DNA of 15,934 nt, taken from IMG/VR virus record IMGVR_UViG_2529292919_000020. One strand, given 5' to 3'. The position numbers were made by a program, and so were the translations under genes. Source of the DNA: a virus. Its lineage: Duplodnaviria; Heunggongvirae; Uroviricota; Caudoviricetes. Shown here piece after piece: positions 1 through 15,934 of the stretch (position 1 is the first letter of the stretch; every line of letters starts with the position of its first letter). A model generated the notes under the pieces. It made no database searches and was not told the origin of the DNA. It saw only the letters and a list, made by a program, of their open reading frames with translations.

Positions 1-1230
1 ATGAGCAGAGCACTTAACAAACTGAGCGATACACAGCTGAGGAAAATCAACGGCACACCCGCCCAAAAAACAGCCTTTCTTAATGACGGTGGAAACCTGA
101 GCGTCAGGCATTCAACCAGCGGCCTTTTAACCTGGTATTTCACTTACAGGGCCGGAACGGGAAGGGGGGCACCACCGGAACGCATTAAGCTGGGAAATTA
201 TCCTGATCTGAGCCTGAAATCAGCCAGGGAAAAAGCCGCCCAGTGTCGCGCATGGCTGGCTGAGGGGAAAAATCCACGTCATGAGATGAATTACACCGTA
301 CAGGAAGCGTTAAAGCCGGTAACGGTTGGCGATGCGCTCACCTACTGGCTTGAGTCGTACGCAAAGGAAAACCGTGTAGATTATGACCCACTGAAAAAGC
401 GGCTAAATAATCACGTAATACAGCACATTGGCTCTATGCCGCTGGATAAATGCGAGCTACGGCACTGGCTGGCCTGTTTTGATCGGGTGGCAAAGCAAGC
501 CCCTGTTTCCGCCGGGTTCCTGCTACAGACATGCAAACAGGCGCTTAAGTTCTGCCGGAAGCGGCGCTATGCAATCAGCAACGTTCTTGATGATATGAGT
601 GTGGCTGACGTTGGGAAAAAACCGGATATAAGCGAACGTGTCTTAAGCAATAAAGAACTGGGCGAATTATTGCAGACACTGGACAAAAAAATATTTTCCC
701 CTTACTACGTCGCACTAATCCGCCTCCTGATTGTTTTCGGATGCCGGACAGTAGAACTGAGATTATCGGAGATCGGCGAGTGGGATTTTACCGAAATGCT
801 CTGGACTGTTCCGAAGGAGCACAGCAAAACGAAGGTAGCCATATTCCGGCCCATACCGGAAGCGATACTGCCGTTCGTCACGCAGCTGGTGGAGCAGAAC
901 AGGCACACGGGCTTATTGCTGGGGGAAGTGAAACAGGAAACCAGCGTATCGCAGTACGGCAGATTGGTGCACAGGAGGCTTAAACACCCTCACTGGTCAT
1001 TGCATGACATCCGGCGCACCTTTACAACGATGCTGAACGATTTAGGCGTGGATCCTCACGTCGTGGAGCAGCTTACAGGACACCAGATGCCAGGGATGCA
1101 ACGAGTCTATAATCACTCCCGTTATCTGGATGCGAAACGCAATGCGCTGGATATGTGGACGGAGCGGTTAGGGATACTGGCGGGAGCACATGAAAACGTA
1201 ACCACGCTATCAGTAGCCAGAAGAAAATAA
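1..1230 (+). CDS. int: Tyrosine recombinase / integrase, P4-type (N-terminal arm-binding-like domain plus C-terminal catalytic domain)
   Basis: 409-aa ORF starting at ATG at position 1. The N-terminus (LSDTQLRKI...NDGGNLSVRHS...TWYFTYR...LGNYPDLSLKSAREKA) resembles the arm-DNA-binding domain of P4-like integrases. The C-terminus carries the tyrosine-recombinase signature (HDIRRTF...LTGHQ...RVYNHSRY). The ORF begins exactly at the window edge, so an upstream extension and attL cannot be assessed. Confidence 0.9.
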   Translation: MSRALNKLSDTQLRKINGTPAQKTAFLNDGGNLSVRHSTSGLLTWYFTYRAGTGRGAPPERIKLGNYPDLSLKSAREKAAQCRAWLAEGKNPRHEMNYTVQEALKPVTVGDALTYWLESYAKENRVDYDPLKKRLNNHVIQHIGSMPLDKCELRHWLACFDRVAKQAPVSAGFLLQTCKQALKFCRKRRYAISNVLDDMSVADVGKKPDISERVLSNKELGELLQTLDKKIFSPYYVALIRLLIVFGCRTVELRLSEIGEWDFTEMLWTVPKEHSKTKVAIFRPIPEAILPFVTQLVEQNRHTGLLLGEVKQETSVSQYGRLVHRRLKHPHWSLHDIRRTFTTMLNDLGVDPHVVEQLTGHQMPGMQRVYNHSRYLDAKRNALDMWTERLGILAGAHENVTTLSVARRK

Positions 1231-1286
1231 TTTTTTTCGTGTTTTTTCAGTATGCGCATACTGGATAAGCACACAGATACAACGGC

Positions 1287-1322
1287 GAACAATGTGAAAC
1301 AACGTGGAACAACCACGAACAA
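1287..1322. promoter_or_regulatory. Four GAACAA units phased at exactly 10 bp (starts 1287, 1297, 1307, 1317): candidate binding array for an AlpA/Xis-type or integrase arm-binding protein
   Basis: Direct reading: cGAACAAtgtGAAACAAcgtgGAACAAccacGAACAAg. The reverse complement shares 18 identical nt with 7335..7352 and with 14335..14352. Position is between the int stop and the alpA start. Confidence 0.5.
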
Positions 1323-1605
1323 GAGGCGAAAAAGCACACAGGTTTATAAGTGACTGATTTTATTTGTATGACTGGTTTTTTATACATTAGCGAATAACGC
1401 TTTAACGCGTGAGAAAAAAGGCGTAAAACGAGATTTTATGCCTTTGTATTAATATGAATTTAAATGATTTTATCCTGATTGTTCCTCTTTCTGTAAACCA
1501 TACGGACTCAACATTTGCCAACGCTGAATCATCCTGACACAATCAGACACAACCCAACCCAATAACCCACCCAATGACTCTTTAAGAAACAACAAAGGGG
1601 GAATT

Positions 1606-1794
1606 GTGTTAAGCACAGATCGCTTTATACGTGAAAAAGAATGTCAGCAACTTACAGGCCTGAGCCGCTCATGTCGGTATCGCCTGGAGAAGACTGGACA
1701 ATTCCCATCACGGCGTAAACTCGGCGGTCGTTCCGTTGGCTGGTCTTTATCCGAAGTTCTGGCATGGAAGGACAGCCGCGAGGCAGTTCACTAA
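1606..1794 (+). CDS. alpA: AlpA-family (Xis/Vis-like winged-helix) transcriptional regulator
   Basis: 62-aa ORF with GTG start preceded by a strong Shine-Dalgarno (AAGGGGGAA). The motif ...CQQLTGLSRSCRYRLEKTGQFPSRRKLGGRSVGWSLSEVLAW... matches the AlpA pattern (L-TGLSRST-YRL---G-FP-P-KLG-R-V-W---EV--W). Confidence 0.85.
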   Translation: MLSTDRFIREKECQQLTGLSRSCRYRLEKTGQFPSRRKLGGRSVGWSLSEVLAWKDSREAVH

Positions 1795-2385: not shown

Positions 2386-2565
2386 TTATTCCTGCTCTTT
2401 GGCCTTGCGACGCTGGCGGTATTCAACTTCTCGCTTTAATGCTGCTGTTACAAACTGCCCTGTACTTTCACCAGGCATTTTTACCGCCTCAACATTGTTC
2501 ATAACTTCATGCGGAACCCTTGCCGCAACTGTTTGTGATTTTGCGTTTACTGCTTTTGTTGCCAT
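2386..2565 (-). CDS. Ribbon-helix-helix-like DNA-binding protein (59 aa), candidate repressor of the divergent promoter region; not in the supplied ORF track
   Basis: Hand-translated minus-strand ORF: MATKAVNAKSQTVAARVPHEVMNNVEAVKMPGESTGQFVTAALKREVEYRQRRKAKEQE. An SD-like GGGG lies about 10 nt upstream of the ATG. The layout (N-terminal beta strand TVAARVP, helix, G-x-S/T turn, second helix) is typical of Arc/MetJ/CopG RHH proteins. It is 59 aa, so it falls below the apparent 60-aa cutoff of the track. Confidence 0.5.
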   Translation of the reverse strand: MATKAVNAKSQTVAARVPHEVMNNVEAVKMPGESTGQFVTAALKREVEYRQRRKAKEQE

Positions 2566-3421: not shown

Positions 3422-3709
3422 ATGAAAAATAAAAATTCTGGCTTTACTGCCAGCGGCCCCGCTCGGCCTGAAATCCGCCCCGGCGATATTTTCCGGGATA
3501 ACTATGGCGGCACGGTAACGATAAAAGGCGTGGCAGAACGGCGCATCACTTACCGCCGTGATGGCTACGAATATGACTGCGTGATGCCTGTTTATCAGTT
3601 CCGGCGTGATTTCACGCTGGTGGGCCATCGTAAAGCCGTAAATCAGAAACGTGCAGCAAGTCATATCCGCAAAATTCGTGAAATGCTGGTCGCAGGGGGT
3701 AAAAAATGA
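3422..3709 (+). CDS. Hypothetical basic protein (95 aa), translationally coupled to the replication initiator
   Basis: ORF-track ORF. Its stop overlaps the start of the downstream gene in an ATGA arrangement (3706..3709). Confidence 0.55.
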   Translation: MKNKNSGFTASGPARPEIRPGDIFRDNYGGTVTIKGVAERRITYRRDGYEYDCVMPVYQFRRDFTLVGHRKAVNQKRAASHIRKIREMLVAGGKK

Positions 3710-5520
3710 AACTGGCACCGAACGTAAAACAGCAGTTACGCGGCATAAAACACAAAGAAACAGAAGTCATTATTTTTGCGGGTAGTGATGCCTGGTCACA
3801 CGCAAAACAATGGCAGGAACATGACGCGCGTATGGCCGGAGATAATGAGCCTCCTGTGTGGCTTGGGGAGCAGCAGTTATCCGAACTGGATAAGCTGCAA
3901 ATTGTGCCGGAAGGCAGAAAATCCGTGCGCATATTCAGGGCCGGATATCTTGCGCCAGTAATGATAAAGGCGATTGGTCAGAAGCTGGCGGCGGCAGGCG
4001 TACAGGATGCAAATTTTTATCCTGAGGGTATGCACGGCCAGGAGGTGCAGAACTGGCGCGAATATCTGGCCCGTGAGCGCCAGAATCTTTCTGATGGTCT
4101 GGTGATTCAGCTTCCTGTTAAGAAAAAAACAGAAGACAGCGCCGCACCACTGGCGCTTAACCAGATGGGAGCAAGCCAGCGCGGCGAAGTTCTCCTGGCA
4201 CATTATGGCGGTGAACTGGCGATTCATGCCGACTCTGACACTGTTCACCATTACAACGGCGTTGTATGGGAGCCGATTCAGGATAAAGAGTTACAGCGTG
4301 CTATGGCGCAGATTTTCATTGATGCGGAGATCAGCTATTCGCAGAACGCCATTAAATCGGCGGTCGATACCATGAAGTTAAGTTTGCCTGTAATGGGGAA
4401 TACAGCCCGTAACCTGATTGGATTCAGTAACGGGGTATTTGATACCAGAACAGGTAATTTTCGGGAGCATAACAAAAACGACTGGTTGTTAATTGCCAGT
4501 GAATTACCTTTCAGCCCACCAGCAGAGGGGGAAACGCTGGCAACACATGCGCCGAATTTCTGGAAGTGGTTACGCCGCTCGGTGGCAGAGAATGACCGCA
4601 AGACGGATCGCGTGCTGGCTGCATTATTCATGGTGCTGGCGAACCGGTACGACTGGCAGTTATTCATTGAGGTAACAGGTCCAGGGGGAAGTGGTAAAAG
4701 CGTGATGGCGGAGATTTGCACCATGCTGGCGGGTAAGGCCAACACAGTATCGGCAAGCATGAAGGCGCTGGAAGATGCAAGGGAACGCGCGTTAGTGGTT
4801 GGCTTTTCGCTGATTATCATGCCGGATATGACCCGCTACGCTGGTGATGGCGCAGGAATTAAGGCCATTACAGGCGGTGACAAGGTGGCAATCGACCCGA
4901 AGCATAAAGCCCCCTACTCAACACGCATTCAGGCGGTCGTGCTGGCGGTGAACAATAACGCCATGTCATTCAGTGACCGCAGCGGGGGGATCTCACGTCG
5001 TCGGGTGATATTCAATTTTTCGGAGGTTGTACCGGAGAACGAGCGCGACCCCATGCTGGCAGAAAAAATAGAAGGAGAGCTGGCGGTTGTGATTCGCCAT
5101 CTGCTTACTCGTTTTTCTGACCAGGACGAAGCTAAACGCCTGCTGTATGAGCAGCAGAAATCAGAAGAAGCTCTGGTGATAAAACGCGAGGGCGATTCGC
5201 TGGTGGACTTCTGTGGCTATCTCATGTCGTCGGTAATGTGTGATGGTCTGTTAGTGGGTAATGCCGAAATTATTCCGTTCAGTCCGCGCAGGTATCTTTA
5301 TCACGCCTATCTGGCATATATGAGGGCACACGGATTCGGTAAACCTGTAACACTGACGCGCTTCGGTAAAGATATGCCGGGGGCAATGGCGGAATATGGC
5401 AGGGAGTATATAAAACGGAAAACGAAGCACGGTTTGCGTTCAAATGTGACACTGACAGAGGATTCAGAAGACTGGATGCCATCATGTGCATCGGTCACAA
5501 ATGACGACAGCAAAAATTAA
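3706..5520 (+). CDS. Replication initiator (pri-rep) with P4-alpha-like C-terminal SF3 helicase / origin-binding region; N-terminal ~200 aa of unassigned family
   Basis: 604-aa ORF with strong SD (CAGGGGG). Walker A GPGGSGKS, followed by a region resembling the phage/plasmid primase P4-family C-terminal (D5-like) helicase domain. Sits immediately upstream of an iteron array. Confidence 0.85.
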   Translation: MKLAPNVKQQLRGIKHKETEVIIFAGSDAWSHAKQWQEHDARMAGDNEPPVWLGEQQLSELDKLQIVPEGRKSVRIFRAGYLAPVMIKAIGQKLAAAGVQDANFYPEGMHGQEVQNWREYLARERQNLSDGLVIQLPVKKKTEDSAAPLALNQMGASQRGEVLLAHYGGELAIHADSDTVHHYNGVVWEPIQDKELQRAMAQIFIDAEISYSQNAIKSAVDTMKLSLPVMGNTARNLIGFSNGVFDTRTGNFREHNKNDWLLIASELPFSPPAEGETLATHAPNFWKWLRRSVAENDRKTDRVLAALFMVLANRYDWQLFIEVTGPGGSGKSVMAEICTMLAGKANTVSASMKALEDARERALVVGFSLIIMPDMTRYAGDGAGIKAITGGDKVAIDPKHKAPYSTRIQAVVLAVNNNAMSFSDRSGGISRRRVIFNFSEVVPENERDPMLAEKIEGELAVVIRHLLTRFSDQDEAKRLLYEQQKSEEALVIKREGDSLVDFCGYLMSSVMCDGLLVGNAEIIPFSPRRYLYHAYLAYMRAHGFGKPVTLTRFGKDMPGAMAEYGREYIKRKTKHGLRSNVTLTEDSEDWMPSCASVTNDDSKN

Positions 5521-5530
5521 ACTTATGGAA

Positions 5531-5760
5531 TAACTGTTCACCACTGTTCACCCTGTGATAAATATCTTTTATATCAGTACATTATAGGGTGAACAGTTAT
5601 TTGTGAACTGTTCACCAAACTATTCACTGTTCACCTTTTTGATTATTTATTGAGCTTTAAGGGTGAACAGTGGTGAACAGTTGGTGAATAGTTTTTGTGA
5701 AACTGTTCACCCCTTAACATTATGAATAAAAAGGGAAAATCTCAAAAGGTGAACAGGTGA
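5531..5760. repeat. Replication origin iterons: about ten copies of CTGTTCACC / GGTGAACAG in both orientations, with an adjacent AT-rich tract
   Basis: Forward copies start at 5534, 5545, 5608, 5627, 5703. Inverted copies start at 5588, 5662, 5672, 5748, plus a degenerate GGTGAATAG at 5683. Neighbouring copies are 10-11 bp apart. AT-rich AAAAATTTTATTTTATT at about 5774..5790. The core TGTTCACC is the octamer I recall as the alpha-binding iteron of P4 ori1/crr. Confidence 0.8.
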
Positions 5761-6512: not shown

Positions 6513-7043
6513 ATGACAACGCTGACCATTAACCGGAAGCCGAAAGGCATTTACGGCACGCCGCAGAAAACGACGCAGGCGGCGCAAGAGCAGGATAAAA
6601 CCACATCGGCGCATAAAGTGATACCCGGCAATCAGAACGCACAGCAGAAGCCCACAGGGGCGACACCGTGGCAGCATATGACCAAAAGGCAGCGCAAAAA
6701 CCGCCGACGCGTTAACCGCCTCACTGAGATGTGGCCTGACTTATTCAGCCATAAAGCACCGAAGCCGCTTAAGGTGGGGATATTCGACGACCTGATGCAG
6801 GATATCGCCGTCAGGGGGCTGGCATTCGGGCCGGGGGTATTACGTGCGACGCTGGCATCCTATGCGCAGTCTCCGCGCTATTACCGCGCCCTGATAGCTG
6901 GTGGCGCACGTTACGACCTGAAAGGCCAGCCATGTGGGGAAGTGACACCACAGGAACAGCAGGAGGCAGAAACACGGCTGATGGTGCTGAATGAGAAGCA
7001 CAAGCGCCAGCGCCGGGCAGCAAAGGGGGATACATGCCAGTGA
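6513..7043 (+). CDS. ProQ/FinO-domain RNA-binding protein
   Basis: 176 aa with strong SD (GGGGAAGG). ...WPDLFSHKAPKPLKVGIFDDLMQDIA...LRATLASYAQSPRYYRALIAGGARYDLKGQPCGEVTPQEQQEA matches the ProQ N-terminal / FinO fold signature (PLKIGIF-DL ... LR-AL--Y--S-RY ... R-DL-G-PCGE). Confidence 0.8.
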   Translation: MTTLTINRKPKGIYGTPQKTTQAAQEQDKTTSAHKVIPGNQNAQQKPTGATPWQHMTKRQRKNRRRVNRLTEMWPDLFSHKAPKPLKVGIFDDLMQDIAVRGLAFGPGVLRATLASYAQSPRYYRALIAGGARYDLKGQPCGEVTPQEQQEAETRLMVLNEKHKRQRRAAKGDTCQ

Positions 7044-7282
7044 CATTTGAAGAAGTTCAGCAACATAAAAAGCTTCATTGTTTTGATGATCTGGAAACCA
7101 CGACAGCAAAAAAATATCGTCGGTTGCTTTCTTCCGATGCGTTATTTTTTGTGGATCATCATGATTTTCTGCGTAGCTCACTGACCGGGGAAATTTTCGC
7201 AACCAACCGTGAGCAGGTGGAAGCGATGATCGAATATTTGTGGAAAATAAGACGCAGAATGCGGGAGCCAGTGAAACAATAA
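7034..7282 (+). CDS. Hypothetical protein (82 aa)
   Basis: ATG at 7034 with GGGGGA SD, overlapping the stop of the ProQ/FinO-like gene. Followed directly by an intrinsic terminator. Confidence 0.5.
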   Translation: MPVTFEEVQQHKKLHCFDDLETTTAKKYRRLLSSDALFFVDHHDFLRSSLTGEIFATNREQVEAMIEYLWKIRRRMREPVKQ

Positions 7283-7290
7283 AGCGATAA

Positions 7291-7319
7291 AGGCCCGGAT
7301 TTTTTCCGGGCCTTTTTTC
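7291..7319 (+). terminator. Rho-independent terminator closing the replication/accessory operon
   Basis: Stem GGCCCGGA (7292..7299) pairing with TCCGGGCC (7305..7312), followed by TTTTTT (7313..7318). Confidence 0.7.
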
Positions 7320-7336
7320 AGGTTTTGTAAATTATT

Positions 7337-7362
7337 TGTTCGTGGTTGTTCCAGGTTGTTCG
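7337..7362. promoter_or_regulatory. Three TTGTTC units phased at exactly 10 bp (starts 7337, 7347, 7357) upstream of the capsid operon: candidate activator-binding site for late/packaging gene expression
   Basis: Direct reading: tTTGTTCgtggTTGTTCcaggTTGTTCgg. An 18-nt exact match to the reverse complement of 1304..1321. Lies just after the terminator and about 195 bp upstream of the major capsid gene start. Confidence 0.5.
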
Positions 7363-7555
7363 GTGATTCTGGTTGATGTTTACATACTGATTTTTATGTA
7401 TATGTTGGCGTGTGGCACTCAGACGTGAGCCGCCACAATGCCGCCTGACCCCCTGCGCGATGCCGGGTTGATCTGCGAGATGCCGAGAGTGTCGGGCGGC
7501 GCTCCCCCCGTGTTGGTTTCACGTCCTGAATCTTAACCAATGCGAGAAAACCTTC

Positions 7556-8701
7556 ATGAAGAAATTAATCGAACTCCGCCAGCAAAAAACCGCCCTGAAA
7601 AACCAGATGCGATCCCTGCTGGAAAAAGCCGACAGTGAAAACCGCAGTCTAACCGATGACGAGGGCAAACAGTTTGATGAACTGCGTGCAAAAGCCGATT
7701 CCCTCGACACAGAAATTTCCCGACTCGAGTCTGTGGCTGATGAAGAACGTAACCAGCCTGGTGTTCCCGTCGAAGATAAAATCACCAAAGACGAGCTACG
7801 CTCTTACATTCTGACCGGGGAAACCCGCAACCTGTCCGGCAGTGTTCCGGCTGATGGTGGTTATACGGTTATCCCGGAACTGAACAGAGAAATTATGCGT
7901 CAGCTTTCTGATGAGTCGGTGATGCGTAAAATCTGTACTGTTAAAACCATTCACAGTAATGAATTTAAGCAACTGGTTTCTGCCGGGGGTGCGGTCGTGG
8001 GACACGGCGAAGAAGGTGCGGCACGTAACCAGACGGCAACCCCAAAACTGAATGAAGTCAGTATCCGCCTGTATCCGATCTACGCTTACCCGAAAACCAC
8101 TCAGGAAATTATCGATTTTTCCGAAGTCGATATTATGGGCTGGTTATCTTCTGAAATTGGCGACACTTTCGTTGATACCGAAGAAACGGATCTGGTTTCC
8201 GGTGATGGCGAGAAAAAAGCCAAAGGTTTCCTGACTTTCCCGCGCACTACGGATAATGACAAAACCCGTCCTTTCGGTACGCTCCAGACGAAAAAAGTGA
8301 CTGGCAGTCTCAGCGCCGATATGCTGATTGACCTGAAATTTACGCTGCGCAATAAGTACCGCAAAAAAGCTGTATGGGTGATGAACTCAAATACAGCCGC
8401 CTCCGCACAAAAACTGAAAAATGCCACTGGTGATTACATCTGGCGCGATCGTTTACAGGCTGGTGATCCTGATTCTCTGCTGGGGCTTCCGGTTGAATAT
8501 CTGGAATTTATGCCGGACGGTGTGATTGCAGTCGGTGACTTTAAGCGCGGTTATTTCATCGTTGACCATAAAACCGGTACGCGTACCCGTCCGGATTTCA
8601 GCGAGCCTGGATTCATTAACATCTATACCCAGAAATATCTGGGCGGTGGTGTGGTGGATTCGAACGCCATCAAGATTCTGGAAATTCAGGCTGGCAAGTA
8701 A
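7556..8701 (+). CDS. Major capsid protein, HK97 family (with N-terminal coiled-coil delta/scaffold-like domain)
   Basis: 381 aa. The N-terminal ~100 aa are highly charged and coiled-coil-like (ELRQQKTALKNQMRSLLEKAD...LRAKADSLDTEISRLES), as in HK97-type capsid delta domains. Gene context with protease and portal. Confidence 0.85.
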   Translation: MKKLIELRQQKTALKNQMRSLLEKADSENRSLTDDEGKQFDELRAKADSLDTEISRLESVADEERNQPGVPVEDKITKDELRSYILTGETRNLSGSVPADGGYTVIPELNREIMRQLSDESVMRKICTVKTIHSNEFKQLVSAGGAVVGHGEEGAARNQTATPKLNEVSIRLYPIYAYPKTTQEIIDFSEVDIMGWLSSEIGDTFVDTEETDLVSGDGEKKAKGFLTFPRTTDNDKTRPFGTLQTKKVTGSLSADMLIDLKFTLRNKYRKKAVWVMNSNTAASAQKLKNATGDYIWRDRLQAGDPDSLLGLPVEYLEFMPDGVIAVGDFKRGYFIVDHKTGTRTRPDFSEPGFINIYTQKYLGGGVVDSNAIKILEIQAGK

Positions 8702-9312: not shown

Positions 9313-10527
9313 ATGTGGTGGCCTTTTAGTCGTAAAAAAAGCGATCTGCGTAACCTGTCCATTGATGATTTTCTGGCGTTGTCTGGTGTACCAAATACCG
9401 GATCCGGAGAATATGTTTCTGCCGGGACGGCTGAATCATTGCCTGCTGTGATGAACGCGGTTTCTGTCATCGCTGAGGCGGTGGCCACGATGCCGTGTTA
9501 CCTGTATCTGGTACGCAATGATAAGGGCAGAGAGGCGCGGGAATGGCTGGACAGTCACCCGGTAGATATTCTGCTGAATGAGCAGCCTAATTCGTGCCTG
9601 ACACCTTACCAGTTTAAACGCACAATGATGCGTCACTGCCTGCTGAACGGTAACGCCTATGCGGTTATTGAGTGGGGGCGGGACGGGCAGCCAAAATCAC
9701 TTCATCCTTATGCGCCGGGGTGTGTTGTACCGGAACGCACAGGCACACACAAATACCGCTATACCATCACCGAACCCTGTACAGGAACGGTGCGCACGTA
9801 TTTACAGGAAGAAGTTCTGCATCTCCGCTATGCCTCGGATGATGGCTTTCTGGGGCGTTCCCCCGTCACGATTTGCCGTGAGGCGCTGGGGCTTGGCCTT
9901 GCTCAACAGCGTCACGGAGCCAGCATTATGAAAGATGGCATGATGGCGGCAGGGATTATCACGTCAGGTGAATGGCTGGACGGCGTGAAAGGTAAACAGG
10001 CATTAGACGCACTGGAACGCTACAAGGGGGCGAAAAATGCCGGAAAAACGCCAATCCTTGAAGGGGGCATGGATTACAGGCAGCTGGGGATGAGTAACCA
10101 GGATGCGGAATGGCTGGCCTCCCGTCGCTTCTCCATTGAAGACATCGCCAGGATGTTCAACGTGTCGCCGATTTTTCTTCAGGAATACAGCAACAGCACC
10201 TACAGCAATTTCAGTGAGGCGAGCCGCGCATTTCTGACCATGACAATGCGCCCGTGGCTGGCGAACTTCGAACAGCAAATCAAGGCCGCTTTGCTGGTGA
10301 CTTCTCCCGTACCAGGTACCCGTTATCTGGTTGAGTTTGATTCAGCCGATTTACTGCGCGCCACACCCACCGAACGTTATGCCACGTATGAGAAAGGGAT
10401 TAAGAGCGGGATCATGAATCCGAACGAAGCTCGCGAACGCGAGGGGATGCCGCCGCGTGAAGGTGGTGATGAGTTCAGCCAGGCATGGAAACAGACTGTG
10501 GAAATTAAAGGGAGAAAAGATGAGTGA
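9313..10527 (+). CDS. Portal protein, HK97 family
   Basis: 404 aa from ATG 9313, 2 nt after the protease stop. The track ORF starts at 9223 inside the protease gene. Size and order are consistent with a portal; overall similarity to HK97-type portals by eye. Confidence 0.8.
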   Translation: MWWPFSRKKSDLRNLSIDDFLALSGVPNTGSGEYVSAGTAESLPAVMNAVSVIAEAVATMPCYLYLVRNDKGREAREWLDSHPVDILLNEQPNSCLTPYQFKRTMMRHCLLNGNAYAVIEWGRDGQPKSLHPYAPGCVVPERTGTHKYRYTITEPCTGTVRTYLQEEVLHLRYASDDGFLGRSPVTICREALGLGLAQQRHGASIMKDGMMAAGIITSGEWLDGVKGKQALDALERYKGAKNAGKTPILEGGMDYRQLGMSNQDAEWLASRRFSIEDIARMFNVSPIFLQEYSNSTYSNFSEASRAFLTMTMRPWLANFEQQIKAALLVTSPVPGTRYLVEFDSADLLRATPTERYATYEKGIKSGIMNPNEAREREGMPPREGGDEFSQAWKQTVEIKGRKDE

Positions 10528-14003: not shown

Positions 14004-14334
14004 TAACGCAAAATTGCGCTGGATGAATGAACATTATGTTACTTATGATTACGCAGATGATTAAGGCCTAACCCGTTGATTCTTCCACAATCCCCCATTG
14101 GGGGAGGCTGGGCGGCCTGCTGTGGGCTTTTCCACCATTGGTGGAAAGGTGCAGATCTGAATCATCATTACGGTGATCAAGGGTATGTAAAACCCACCAG
14201 CCTGATTGACATTTAACCGGAAAAAAAGCCAGGTAGCCCCGTTATGGGGATCCCCATATCGACATTAACGCCCCTCATGAATTGGCGTGCTTTCCCCTGG
14301 AAAGATGACCCGCCTGTATATTTCTTGTGTCTAT

Positions 14335-14391
14335 TTGTTCCACGTTGTTTCATACAGTGCACCGAACGGTGTAGTTAATGGTGTAGTTAAT
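14335..14391. repeat. Third copy of the phased TTGTTC motif (14335..14351, 2 units 10 bp apart) followed by a perfect tandem GGTGTAGTTAAT x2 (14368..14391)
   Basis: 14335..14352 (TTGTTCCACGTTGTTTCA) is an 18-nt exact match to the reverse complement of 1295..1312. The 12-bp tandem duplication was read directly. Confidence 0.45.
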
Positions 14392-14473
14392 TTGCGATTT
14401 TTGGTACTTTTTGTAGTGCAAATTATTTAATTAAATCAATGCCTTATCTTAATTTAGTGATAAAAGGACATAT

Positions 14474-15934
14474 TTATTCATCTTTCGGCGCAGAATGCTG
14501 GCGACCAAAAATCACCTCCATCCGCGCACCGCCCAGCATGCTCTCTCCGGCGACGATTTTACCCTCATATTGCTCGGTGATTTCGCGGGCTACGGCCAGC
14601 CCCACACCTTGCCCAGGGCGTAAAGTATCAACCCGTTGACCACGGTCGAAAATGACCTCTCGCTTGCTTAATGGAATACCGGGGCCATCATCCTCGACCA
14701 CAATATAGAGATGCTCGTCGGTTTGCCTTGCAGAAATTTCGACAAACTCGAGGCAATATTTACAGGCGTTATCCAGCACGTTGCCCATCACTTCGACAAA
14801 ATCATTCTGCTCACCAACAAAGCTGATTTCTGGCGAGATATCGAGATAGATATTGACCCCTTTGCGTTGATACACTTTGTTCAGCGCCGAGGTGAGATTG
14901 TCCAACAGTGGGGCGACCGGATGCAGCTCGCGGCTAAGCAATGTCCCGCCGCGCATACTGGCACGATGCAGGTAGTAGCCAATTTGCTGTGAAATGCGGC
15001 TGATTTGCTCCAGCATTACCGGCTCAGCATCACTGACGCTCATCTTCTCACTACGCAGAGAACGCAGCGTACTTTGCAGCACCGCCAGTGGTGTTTTCAG
15101 ACTATGGGTCAGGTCGGTGAGCGTCGTACGATATTTGTCGTAACGTTCGCGTTCACTTTTTAACAGTCGGTTCAGGTTTCGTACCAGACTGGTCAGTTCT
15201 CGCGTTGTGGCTGGATTGAGCAATTCACGGTTATGTTCTTCCAGTTCGCGGACTTCTTTTGCCAGGGCTTCGATGGGGCGTAAACTCCACCAGGCGGCGA
15301 CCCACAGCAGCGGGATCACTAACAGCAGATTGGCTGAGAGCACATAGATAAACCAGCTCCAGACCATATAGGAACTTTTTAGCTCCACCGGAATGGTATC
15401 CACCACCACAATGGTTAACTTTGGCATCCGCGATGTTGCCGGGTAGACGTTTACCGCCACCGAGTGGGTCATCTCCGCGTCGTCATCATCTTCCCGCACT
15501 TCCTGCAACTGTTGCTGTATCGAATGATCTCCACTCAGCAAGAGGCTGGTATCGTTAACATCCGCTTCAATTTCATGAAAACCATTCGATTTCAGCCAGT
15601 CAGGCTGGATCATCTTCATCAGCCAGGGCACGTCACGTTGCGCCCATAAAAGCTGCCCGTTCTCATCATAAATTAGTGTCATCGTGGGGCTTTGCTTGTC
15701 GATATTTTCGGGTAACTCGACATGCAACTTATTGTTTTCCCACTTCGCAAGGGTATAGAACAGATTGCTCTCGCCACGTAACAGCCGAAACGTGGTTTTA
15801 TCGAAACTGACGCTATAACCGATCAGCGCAACCATTCCGTAGGCAAGCGAAAGCACCAATACTACTGCTGCCGTTGCTAACAGAAAACGTACCCGCAGCG
15901 AGAGCGGGAAAAAAAGATGCAGTAATTTTTTCAT
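14474..15934 (-). CDS. phoQ: Sensor histidine kinase PhoQ (PhoP/PhoQ two-component system)
   Basis: 486-aa ORF. From memory the sequence is near-identical to E. coli PhoQ ([76 protein letters not shown]... ending ...[10 protein letters not shown]). Periplasmic acidic patch EDDDDAE, HAMP, phosphoacceptor His in [12 protein letters not shown], and ATPase G-boxes. The start codon is at the window edge. Confidence 0.95.

Follow-up and report, generated by a model that had tools for sequence, protein, structure and literature searches.

What is the function of a row of three identical hexamers in front of the capsid operon of a phage-inducible island, and which protein reads it? The question arises in the viral sequence IMGVR_UViG_2529292919_000020 (15,934 bp; we call this whole stretch of DNA the window). 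The window is a capsid-forming phage-inducible chromosomal island (cf-PICI), a relative of EcCIEDL933, inserted beside phoQ. Upstream of its major capsid gene, on the plus strand at 7336..7361, three direct repeats form the row TTGTTC gtgg TTGTTC cagg TTGTTC. We call it array 3 and predict that it is an operator of AlpA, a small protein encoded in the same island. Array 3 is real and conserved, a cis-element that lies upstream of the promoter of the capsid operon. From this and from the comparisons below we infer that AlpA binds array 3, probably together with a TTGTAA hexamer upstream of it, and activates the capsid and packaging operon. We give this reading a probability of roughly 55%.

The three hexamers are exact (7336-7341, 7346-7351 and 7356-7361, plus strand) and repeat with a phase of exactly 10 bp. 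The first-pass annotation of this DNA had seen the three units and their phase correctly and had placed them one base too far to the right, at 7337..7362. Taken singly, TTGTTC shows no enrichment in the window (14 found, 11 expected). The phased patterns were counted with up to two mismatches. The two-unit pattern matches 15 times against 1.9 expected, and 0 of 200 shuffles reach 15. The three-unit pattern matches three times against 0.00 expected from shuffles. Upstream of array 3 lies an intrinsic terminator at 7290..7319 (plus strand), a hairpin AAAGGCCCGG...CCGGGCCTTTTTT with a T-run (-21.7 kcal/mol, z = -4.1), which closes the upstream operon of ssb, a ProQ/FinO-family gene and an 82-amino-acid open reading frame (ORF). 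Downstream, 194 bp separate the array from the capsid ATG at 7556. Both the position directly after a terminator and a distance of about 195 bp to the capsid start had been claimed before, and both stand.

Is this arrangement conserved? To avoid selection on the motif, we gathered cf-PICI loci via their capsid protein. The 115 bp upstream of an invariant hairpin were aligned free of gaps, and information content was computed over 12 diverged lineages. Raw counts from pattern scans in viral contigs were uninformative for the array family, because many unrelated arrays matched. The alignment reveals a fixed layout, common to lineages whose capsid proteins are only 68-74% identical: a box with the sequence TTGTAAATTA, the three phased units, about 17 bp that are not conserved, a -35 hexamer, a spacer of 16-17 bp, a -10 hexamer, 5 bp and the hairpin. 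Conservation follows this layout. The box (7325..7334, plus strand) has a mean of 1.59 bits, compared to 0.29 for the upstream background. Unit 1 reaches 1.45 bits, units 2 and 3 reach 0.87 bits each, and the two spacers between the units have 0.52 and 0.63 bits. The gap between the array and the -35 falls to 0.38 bits, followed by 1.41 bits for the -35 hexamer and 1.29 bits for the -10 hexamer.

Upstream of the capsid promoter, conservation is hence highest in the TTGTAAATTA box, which ranks above TTGTTC units 2 and 3. Its first six bases are TTGTAA, 11 bp upstream of unit 1. Lineages with diverged downstream units still retain the box. It could serve as a fourth AlpA unit, at which binding nucleates, or as the site of a second factor. 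In distant lineages the units themselves have diverged and a GTTC/GTTT core is still in phase: they read TTGTTC / TCGTTC / CTGTTT in locus L164 and TTGTGT / ACATTC / CTGTTC in islands of the type of L010 (a cf-PICI at yhdJ/fis). When the window is compared with EDL933-type islands, only the block of box plus array, TTTTGTAAATTATTTGTTCGTGGTTGTTCCASGTTGTTC, is conserved, and the flanks cannot be aligned.

The -35 and -10 of this layout belong to a predicted promoter of the capsid operon. A consensus scan gives TTTACA-16-TATGTT at 7379..7406 (plus strand), with the -35 at 7379..7384 and the -10 at 7401..7406. We consider this sigma70-like promoter credible because both its hexamers and its position are kept in diverged relatives. 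The lineages carry TTTAC(A/T) as -35 and TA(T/A)NTT as -10, each at a conserved spacing from the array and from the hairpin downstream. The earlier statement that no strong sigma70-like promoter is obvious in 7363..7555 therefore has to be dropped. The -35 is close to consensus and begins 17 bp downstream of array 3. If transcription starts as predicted at about 7413, the units are centred at about -54.5, -64.5 and -74.5 and the TTGTAA at about -85.5, and all of them face the same side of the helix. Such positions would be typical of an upstream activator. As in a class I promoter, the -35 and -10 are found at a conserved distance downstream of the sites.

Array 3 could also be without function, a chance or hitch-hiking repeat, or it could belong to a site for packaging (cos) or for replication. 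The island does have TGTTC-containing iterons. They lie in a likely replication origin at 5532..5757, downstream of the primase/helicase gene, where at least nine copies of the iteron ACTGTTCACC occur in both orientations. These iterons vary with the Rep type: the sequence is ACTGTTCACC in the window, TAACCCGCA in O157:H7 strain 86-24 (L002) and CTGTCTACC in EcCICFT073 (L006). The TTGTTC arrays, in contrast, do not differ among these islands, and we therefore rejected them as Rep iterons. By analogy with HK97-type phages, cos would be expected between the HNH and TerS genes. Furthermore, shuffled sequences yield no such three-unit arrays, conservation across lineages is higher in the units than in spacers and flanks, and the spacing to the promoter is constant. 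We give next to no credence to a functionless array 3 or to one that belongs to cos or the origin.

The same motif occurs elsewhere in the island. Array 2 (1277..1322, minus strand) lies between int and alpA, immediately past the stop codon of int and some 285 bp before alpA. It has five phased units in inverted orientation: TTGTTC gtgg TTGTTC cacg TTGTTT caca TTGTTC gccg TTGTAT. A site near int in the opposite orientation had been pointed out before, and it is this one. In the right arm of the attachment site (attR) we find array 4 (14325..14350, plus strand), TTGTGT ctat TTGTTC cacg TTGTTT.

We compared these sites among six islands with the same 62-amino-acid AlpA (90-100% identical), EcCIEDL933-type islands and EcCICFT073 included. 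Four positions emerge. In the left attachment arm (attL), upstream of int, four plus-strand units follow about five degenerate TGTTT units that reach to the core. This array is present in five of the five islands whose fetched sequence extends upstream of int (L001, a near-identical island at abgR/smrA in strain JP538; L002; L003; L006; L007), and its position falls outside the present window. Just after the int stop codon, an inverted array of 3-6 units is found in all six islands. The alignment of array 2 among relatives shows invariant ACAA cores and variable spacers. The plus-strand array of three units upstream of the capsid operon occurs in cf-PICIs only. The attR arm carries three plus-strand units in five of six islands (not found in L003), and the sequence of array 4 is identical in L001, L002 and L006. 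Hence the motif has the direct-repeat form of an excisionase-type operator, with three exact units at 10.0 bp in array 3 and 3-6 units at the other sites. A scan of genome contigs with AlpA gave three loci, and those from Geobacter (L004) and from an alphaproteobacterium (L005) lack TTGT-type arrays.

Phased direct repeats in both attachment arms recall the P'1-3 sites of lambda, and the integrase (Int) of the island has an arm-binding domain. Could the TTGTTC repeats be the arm-type sites of Int? A different element fits this role better. At 14368..14391 (plus strand) the 12-mer GGTGTAGTTAAT stands twice in tandem, adjoining array 4, and the attL arms of L001, L002, L006 and L008 are built alike, with the doublet next to TTGTTC arrays upstream of int. 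In L010, whose Int is 54% identical, the 12-mer has become GGTGCAGTCAGT, and the strands of the arm domain that are predicted to contact DNA differ as well; the TGTTC arrays remain in its attachment arms. In L011, a helper-embedded island (Int 43% identical), the 12-mer is TGTGTATTGCAC. The 12-mer doublet probably represents the Int arm-type sites.

The arrays do not behave in this way. We rejected them as Int arm sites because the neighbouring 12-mer, and not the arrays, changes with the integrase type. Nor are they confined to the attachment arms: 1277..1322 and 7336..7361 are internal to the island, about 1.3 kb and at least 7 kb from the attachment cores. Helper-embedded islands whose Int is 43% identical keep array 3 and lack comparable arrays in their attachment arms. 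We thus consider it very improbable that the TTGTTC repeats are integrase sites. A 'doubled motif' at the attP sites of helper-embedded PICIs (HE-PICI) has been described as unique to those islands (PMC10111431). The 12-mer doublet corresponds to it, and the motif is evidently found in other PICI integrase clades too.

If neither Int nor Rep reads the arrays, which protein does? The island contains an excisionase-like gene, alpA (1606..1794, plus strand), whose product of 62 amino acids matches Pfam PF05930 at 2.7e-18 and a PHROG family described as 'excisionase and transcriptional regulator'. An AlphaFold2 model made from the single sequence has a predicted local distance difference test (pLDDT) score of 88 and shows an excisionase-type winged helix. 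In Foldseek the best match of this model is the GIsul2 excisionase (8c3t, template modelling (TM) score 0.80). Other matches are winged helices of the MerR/CarH type, RdfS (8dgl), TorI (1z4h, TM 0.64) and BldC. Small winged-helix proteins with an excisionase fold bind head to tail on direct repeats that are one helical turn apart.

A close published parallel to the arrays is found with TorI, the excisionase of the E. coli prophage KplE1 (CPS-53). TorI has five sites in attL with the cores GTTCG, GATCG and GTCCG, and a block of three sites, 2 nt apart within 28 bp, abuts the -35 of PintS, which TorI represses (Panis et al. 2010, PMC2951348). In the K-12 sequence we read this block as AGTTCG tcat GGTTCG cttc AGATCG TTGACA. 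Its core and its direct phase of 10 bp match array 3 when the latter is written as TTGTTCG tgg TTGTTCC agg TTGTTCG. With AlpA as the predicted binder here, the two systems would also be alike in that a small winged-helix protein of the excisionase type binds, that blocks of sites stand beside Int arm sites in the attachment arms, and that such sites double as promoter control sites. They differ in position: repression by TorI is exerted from sites adjoining the -35 of PintS, whereas array 3 lies 17 bp upstream of a -35, before a capsid operon and far from the attachment sites. TorI and AlpA have no detectable sequence similarity, and only the fold is similar (TM 0.64).

That excision factors double as transcription regulators on phased repeats is already known, from TorI and RdfS as well as from Cox of P2, Apl of 186 and Vis of P4. 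The last three are small proteins that act on direct repeats about one helical turn apart, at attachment sites and at promoters, and they couple excision to a transcriptional switch. Cox activates the late promoter PLL of P4. Vis is a satellite-encoded member of the AlpA family. The repeats read by Cox, Apl and Vis differ in sequence from the TTGTTC units, and none of the three is known to govern a capsid-operon promoter borne by the satellite itself. RdfS of ICEMlSymR7A, an excision factor with a winged helix, forms oligomers on DNA and binds attP as well as promoters (PMC11963761). Its structure resembles the AlpA model, as the Foldseek match shows, but its sites lack a consensus motif and are read indirectly, whereas the TTGTTC motif is sharp and phased.

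What AlpA does in relatives has been studied in EcCICFT073, where AlpA is 97% identical to that of the window. The gene is induced by the helper phage, AlpA activates a PalpA-lacZ fusion and not the Pint fusion, and over-expression of AlpA alone leads to excision and replication of the island in a helper-free strain (Fillol-Salom et al. 2018, PMC6092414). We mapped the published primers. The PalpA fragment corresponds to L006 9968..10423 and holds a six-unit inverted array at 10026..10081, homologous to array 2. Thus the fragment that responds to AlpA contains the motif. The published work defined no operator, and no array of this kind stands before the packaging genes of EcCICFT073. In EcCIEDL933, an alpA mutant is not induced (bioRxiv 10.1101/2022.09.08.507074), and alpA over-expression has been employed to raise particle yield (bioRxiv 10.1101/2025.02.11.637232).

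Four lines therefore make AlpA the best candidate binder of the arrays: the match to the TorI sites, the PF05930 family with its excisionase fold, the array inside the AlpA-activated PalpA fragment, and the exclusion of Int and Rep. In the first-pass annotation, activation by AlpA had been called 'reported for PICI packaging operons'. The papers show something narrower, namely activation of AlpA's own promoter and the need for AlpA in induction (PMC6092414; bioRxiv 10.1101/2022.09.08.507074). Our search for an AlpA operator or an AlpA-dependent packaging promoter found none in the searchable literature.

A real operator could of course have another binder. This could be an island protein (for example the 82-amino-acid product of 7034..7282, or PerC-like proteins in relatives), an excisionase or inducer of the helper, or a host regulator of the OmpR/PhoB type. 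The link from AlpA to array 3 is one that we infer, and winged-helix regulators of the OmpR/PhoB type also bind direct repeats one helical turn apart. The array is kept together with AlpA alleles that are only 52-60% identical and in helper-embedded islands with other AlpA-like proteins. Cross-talk of excisionases between different mobile elements has been documented (PMC11773190). Yet the motif also sits in the attachment arms, where an excision factor is expected, and it matches the TorI sites in core sequence and phase. The genes for the 82-amino-acid protein, PerC and ProQ are not common to all islands that carry the array. Since AlpA over-expression alone excises the island in a helper-free strain, a binder encoded by island or host suffices. 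A binder other than AlpA is unlikely, but it is an explanation that we take seriously.

If AlpA is the binder, the following chain of events can be proposed. The helper phage would turn alpA on, and AlpA would then bind the phased units cooperatively and fill all four arrays. At the attachment arms it would act with Int as a directionality factor and drive excision. Near its own gene it would provide positive feedback. At 7336..7361 an AlpA filament would occupy the positions around -54, -64 and -74 (and -85), on the same side of the DNA helix and upstream of TTTACA-16-TATGTT. Transcription of the capsid and packaging genes would be raised, most simply by class I recruitment of RNA polymerase or by DNA bending. 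The terminator at 7290..7319 would insulate the capsid promoter from the early operon upstream.

Several observations weigh against this proposal. According to the primer mapping, the Pint fragment of EcCICFT073 spans the attL arrays, and it does not respond to AlpA. AlpA bound to an array, should it bind there at all, would hence not act as an activator in every case. At array 2, the inverted orientation and a distance of about 190 bp to the best alpA promoter-like site (1515..1543) leave no evident route to activation; a minus-strand promoter downstream of the inverted array was looked for and none was found. Classical PICIs with the same AlpA (L006 and L007) have no array before their packaging genes, and one cf-PICI lineage (L152 / L170) has palindromes in place of the array. 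Co-variation between AlpA alleles and the motif gave no test, because both are conserved: the alleles share an R-x-x-R-Y/W core in the recognition helix and the motif retains its GTTC/GTTT core. Finally, tail-less cf-PICI capsids have been reported to form without a helper phage (bioRxiv 10.1101/2025.02.11.637232). Together with the near-consensus -35, this suggests that substantial expression of the operon may be independent of AlpA.

The same observations bear on whether AlpA, once bound to array 3, activates at all. It might repress or insulate, for example as a roadblock to antisense transcription or to read-through from the upstream operon, or it might have an architectural role and bridge to the other arrays while the island is excised or packaged. 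Sites like these serve TorI to repress PintS, AlpA does not activate the Pint fragment with the same motif, the capsid promoter looks fairly strong by itself, and capsids reportedly form without the helper. However, the units lie at least 17 bp upstream of the -35 and overlap neither hexamer, a position typical of an activator rather than of a repressor. Over-expression of alpA promotes the production of cf-PICI particles, and alpA mutants are not induced. A bound but non-activating AlpA is therefore rather improbable in our view.

For activation by AlpA this leaves a weaker form than first proposed. The first-pass annotation had suggested a late promoter that depends on an activator, for which AlpA was given as an example. 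A conserved cis-element with AlpA as its best candidate binder survives from this suggestion, while the reported formation of capsids without a helper argues against strict dependence. AlpA may modulate the capsid promoter without being strictly required for it.

A mechanism borrowed from the AlpA of Pseudomonas aeruginosa does not apply. That protein is an antiterminator that works from a single GGGACG element between -35 and -10 and acts by a Q-like mechanism with a sigma-dependent pause (PMC9371919). It has its helix-turn-helix at residues 128-142, which makes it over twice as long as the PICI AlpA of 62 amino acids, and the two proteins have nothing but the name in common. We rejected Q-type antitermination because the repeats lie upstream of the -35 and the PICI protein belongs to PF05930.

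Control of the capsid operon may not end at the promoter. The capsid mRNA has a structured 5' leader (7412..7555, plus strand) with three elements: P1 at 7412..7436, P2 at about 7440..7500 and P3 at about 7514..7552. RNAalifold predicts 27 pairs for the leader from nine lineages, eight of them with compensatory changes. The P1 hairpin GTGGCACTCAGACGTGAGCCGCCAC begins 6 nt past the -10 hexamer, at the expected start of transcription. Of 14 lineages, 13 keep it unchanged, and EDL933-type islands show three compensatory pairs in it. In P2 the helix is kept while the sequence changes among lineages. P3 pairs GGTTTC with GAAAACC. Its 3' arm stops 3 nt short of the capsid ATG, so that P3 may mask the ribosome-binding site. 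An Rfam search of 7250..7620 matched no family. The gene just upstream of the leader (6513..7043) encodes an RNA-binding protein of the ProQ/FinO family.

A wider proposal would join all of this. AlpA could run the whole induction of a cf-PICI through one operator code at four loci, and the capsid module could be under two layers of control: an array nucleated at TTGTAAATTA, and a P1-P3 leader that masks the ribosome-binding site of the capsid gene and is possibly a target of the ProQ/FinO protein. A single switch would in that case govern excision, autoinduction and the formation of capsids. We put this forward tentatively, as a possibility that we would not expect to hold in full.

Why does the operator matter? 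AlpA is the accepted master switch of phage-inducible islands in Gram-negative bacteria, and the searchable literature yielded no definition of its DNA target or of its direct regulon. The phased TTGTTC units, which resemble TorI sites, are a concrete predicted operator for AlpA at four positions. New are also the placement of this predicted operator before the island's own capsid operon and the distinction, within the attachment regions, between excision-factor sites and the Int arm sites of the 12-mer doublet. If the prediction is true, then AlpA reaches the capsid and packaging operon directly, the source of the tail-less particles by which cf-PICIs cross species boundaries. The predicted operator also offers a handle for annotation and for the engineering of PICI-based delivery systems. 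The module is unannotated though it is carried by 407 of 5426 complete E. coli genomes, always on the chromosome and including O157:H7 strains (Sakai is among the matches listed). Beneath the eight matches listed, no gene or regulatory feature is annotated; in Sakai there is only the enclosing region 'prophage Sp7'.

The remainder of the island is arranged as follows, with gene families assigned by Pfam scans and genes named in their order on the plus strand. The first gene, int (1..1230), encodes a tyrosine recombinase with Arm-DNA-bind_3 and Phage_integrase domains. After alpA come a DUF4222 gene, a D5-type primase/helicase gene (3706..5520), ssb, the ProQ/FinO-family gene and the 82-amino-acid ORF (7034..7282). 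The major capsid gene (7556..8701; Phage_capsid at 8e-61) heads the capsid and packaging operon, which is HK97-like, has the order capsid, protease, portal, connector, HNH, TerS and TerL, and extends to 13552. Downstream of the island, phoQ lies on the minus strand (14474..15934).

Island ends were set by a flanking direct repeat of 10 bp, which is GGACATATTT at the phoQ site and AATATCGTGA at the abgR/smrA site. In the window, the att core GGACATATTT at the right end of the island (14466..14475, plus strand) overlaps the phoQ stop codon. The left copy lies upstream of int, beyond the window. The 10-mer flanks the island of L002 on both sides. L002 is the locus of the prototype EcCIEDL933, which occupies the roxA/phoQ site in O157:H7 (bioRxiv 10.1101/2022.09.08.507074).

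The region between int and alpA varies among relatives. In the window, a conserved hairpin GGCGTAAAA...TTTTATGCC (1400..1445) stands between array 2 and alpA. With TTTTTTCT following on the minus strand, it resembles a terminator, leftward or bidirectional, within the int-alpA spacer. PICIs with an AlpA allele of 69 amino acids (L008 and L009, 11616..11641) carry GAATATCGGAAAATATCTGCAAATATC, three AATATC units in a phase of 10 bp, after int in place of the GAACAA array; islands of this type still hold TGTTC arrays in both attachment arms. In L010 (4230..4330) a perfect palindrome (ATATCACATAT AAAA TATGTGATTT) precedes alpA and replaces the GAACAA array. The same island has an additional ORF between int and alpA, and the two features together suggest a different control of alpA in that lineage.

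The hexamer also turns up in a setting of its own. Unrelated viral contigs (L012, L014, L016, L023 and about 20 more IMG/VR loci) carry TTGTTCC four times in a phase of 10 bp, followed by an inverted GGAACAA (TCTAGTTGTTCCCGTTGTTCCCAGTTGTTCCGAGTTGTTCCGGGAACAACTGG). This is a different element that shares the hexamer by coincidence.

One further small gene may belong to the regulatory set of these islands. An ORF of 59 amino acids (2386..2565, minus strand) is assigned by annotation in relatives to the YlcI/YnfO family and is kept in all PICIs examined, in divergent orientation from the icd-like operon. A Pfam scan of this ORF gave no match, and its PHROG family carries no assigned function. From its sequence the product looks like a ribbon-helix-helix protein, which would make it a candidate repressor.

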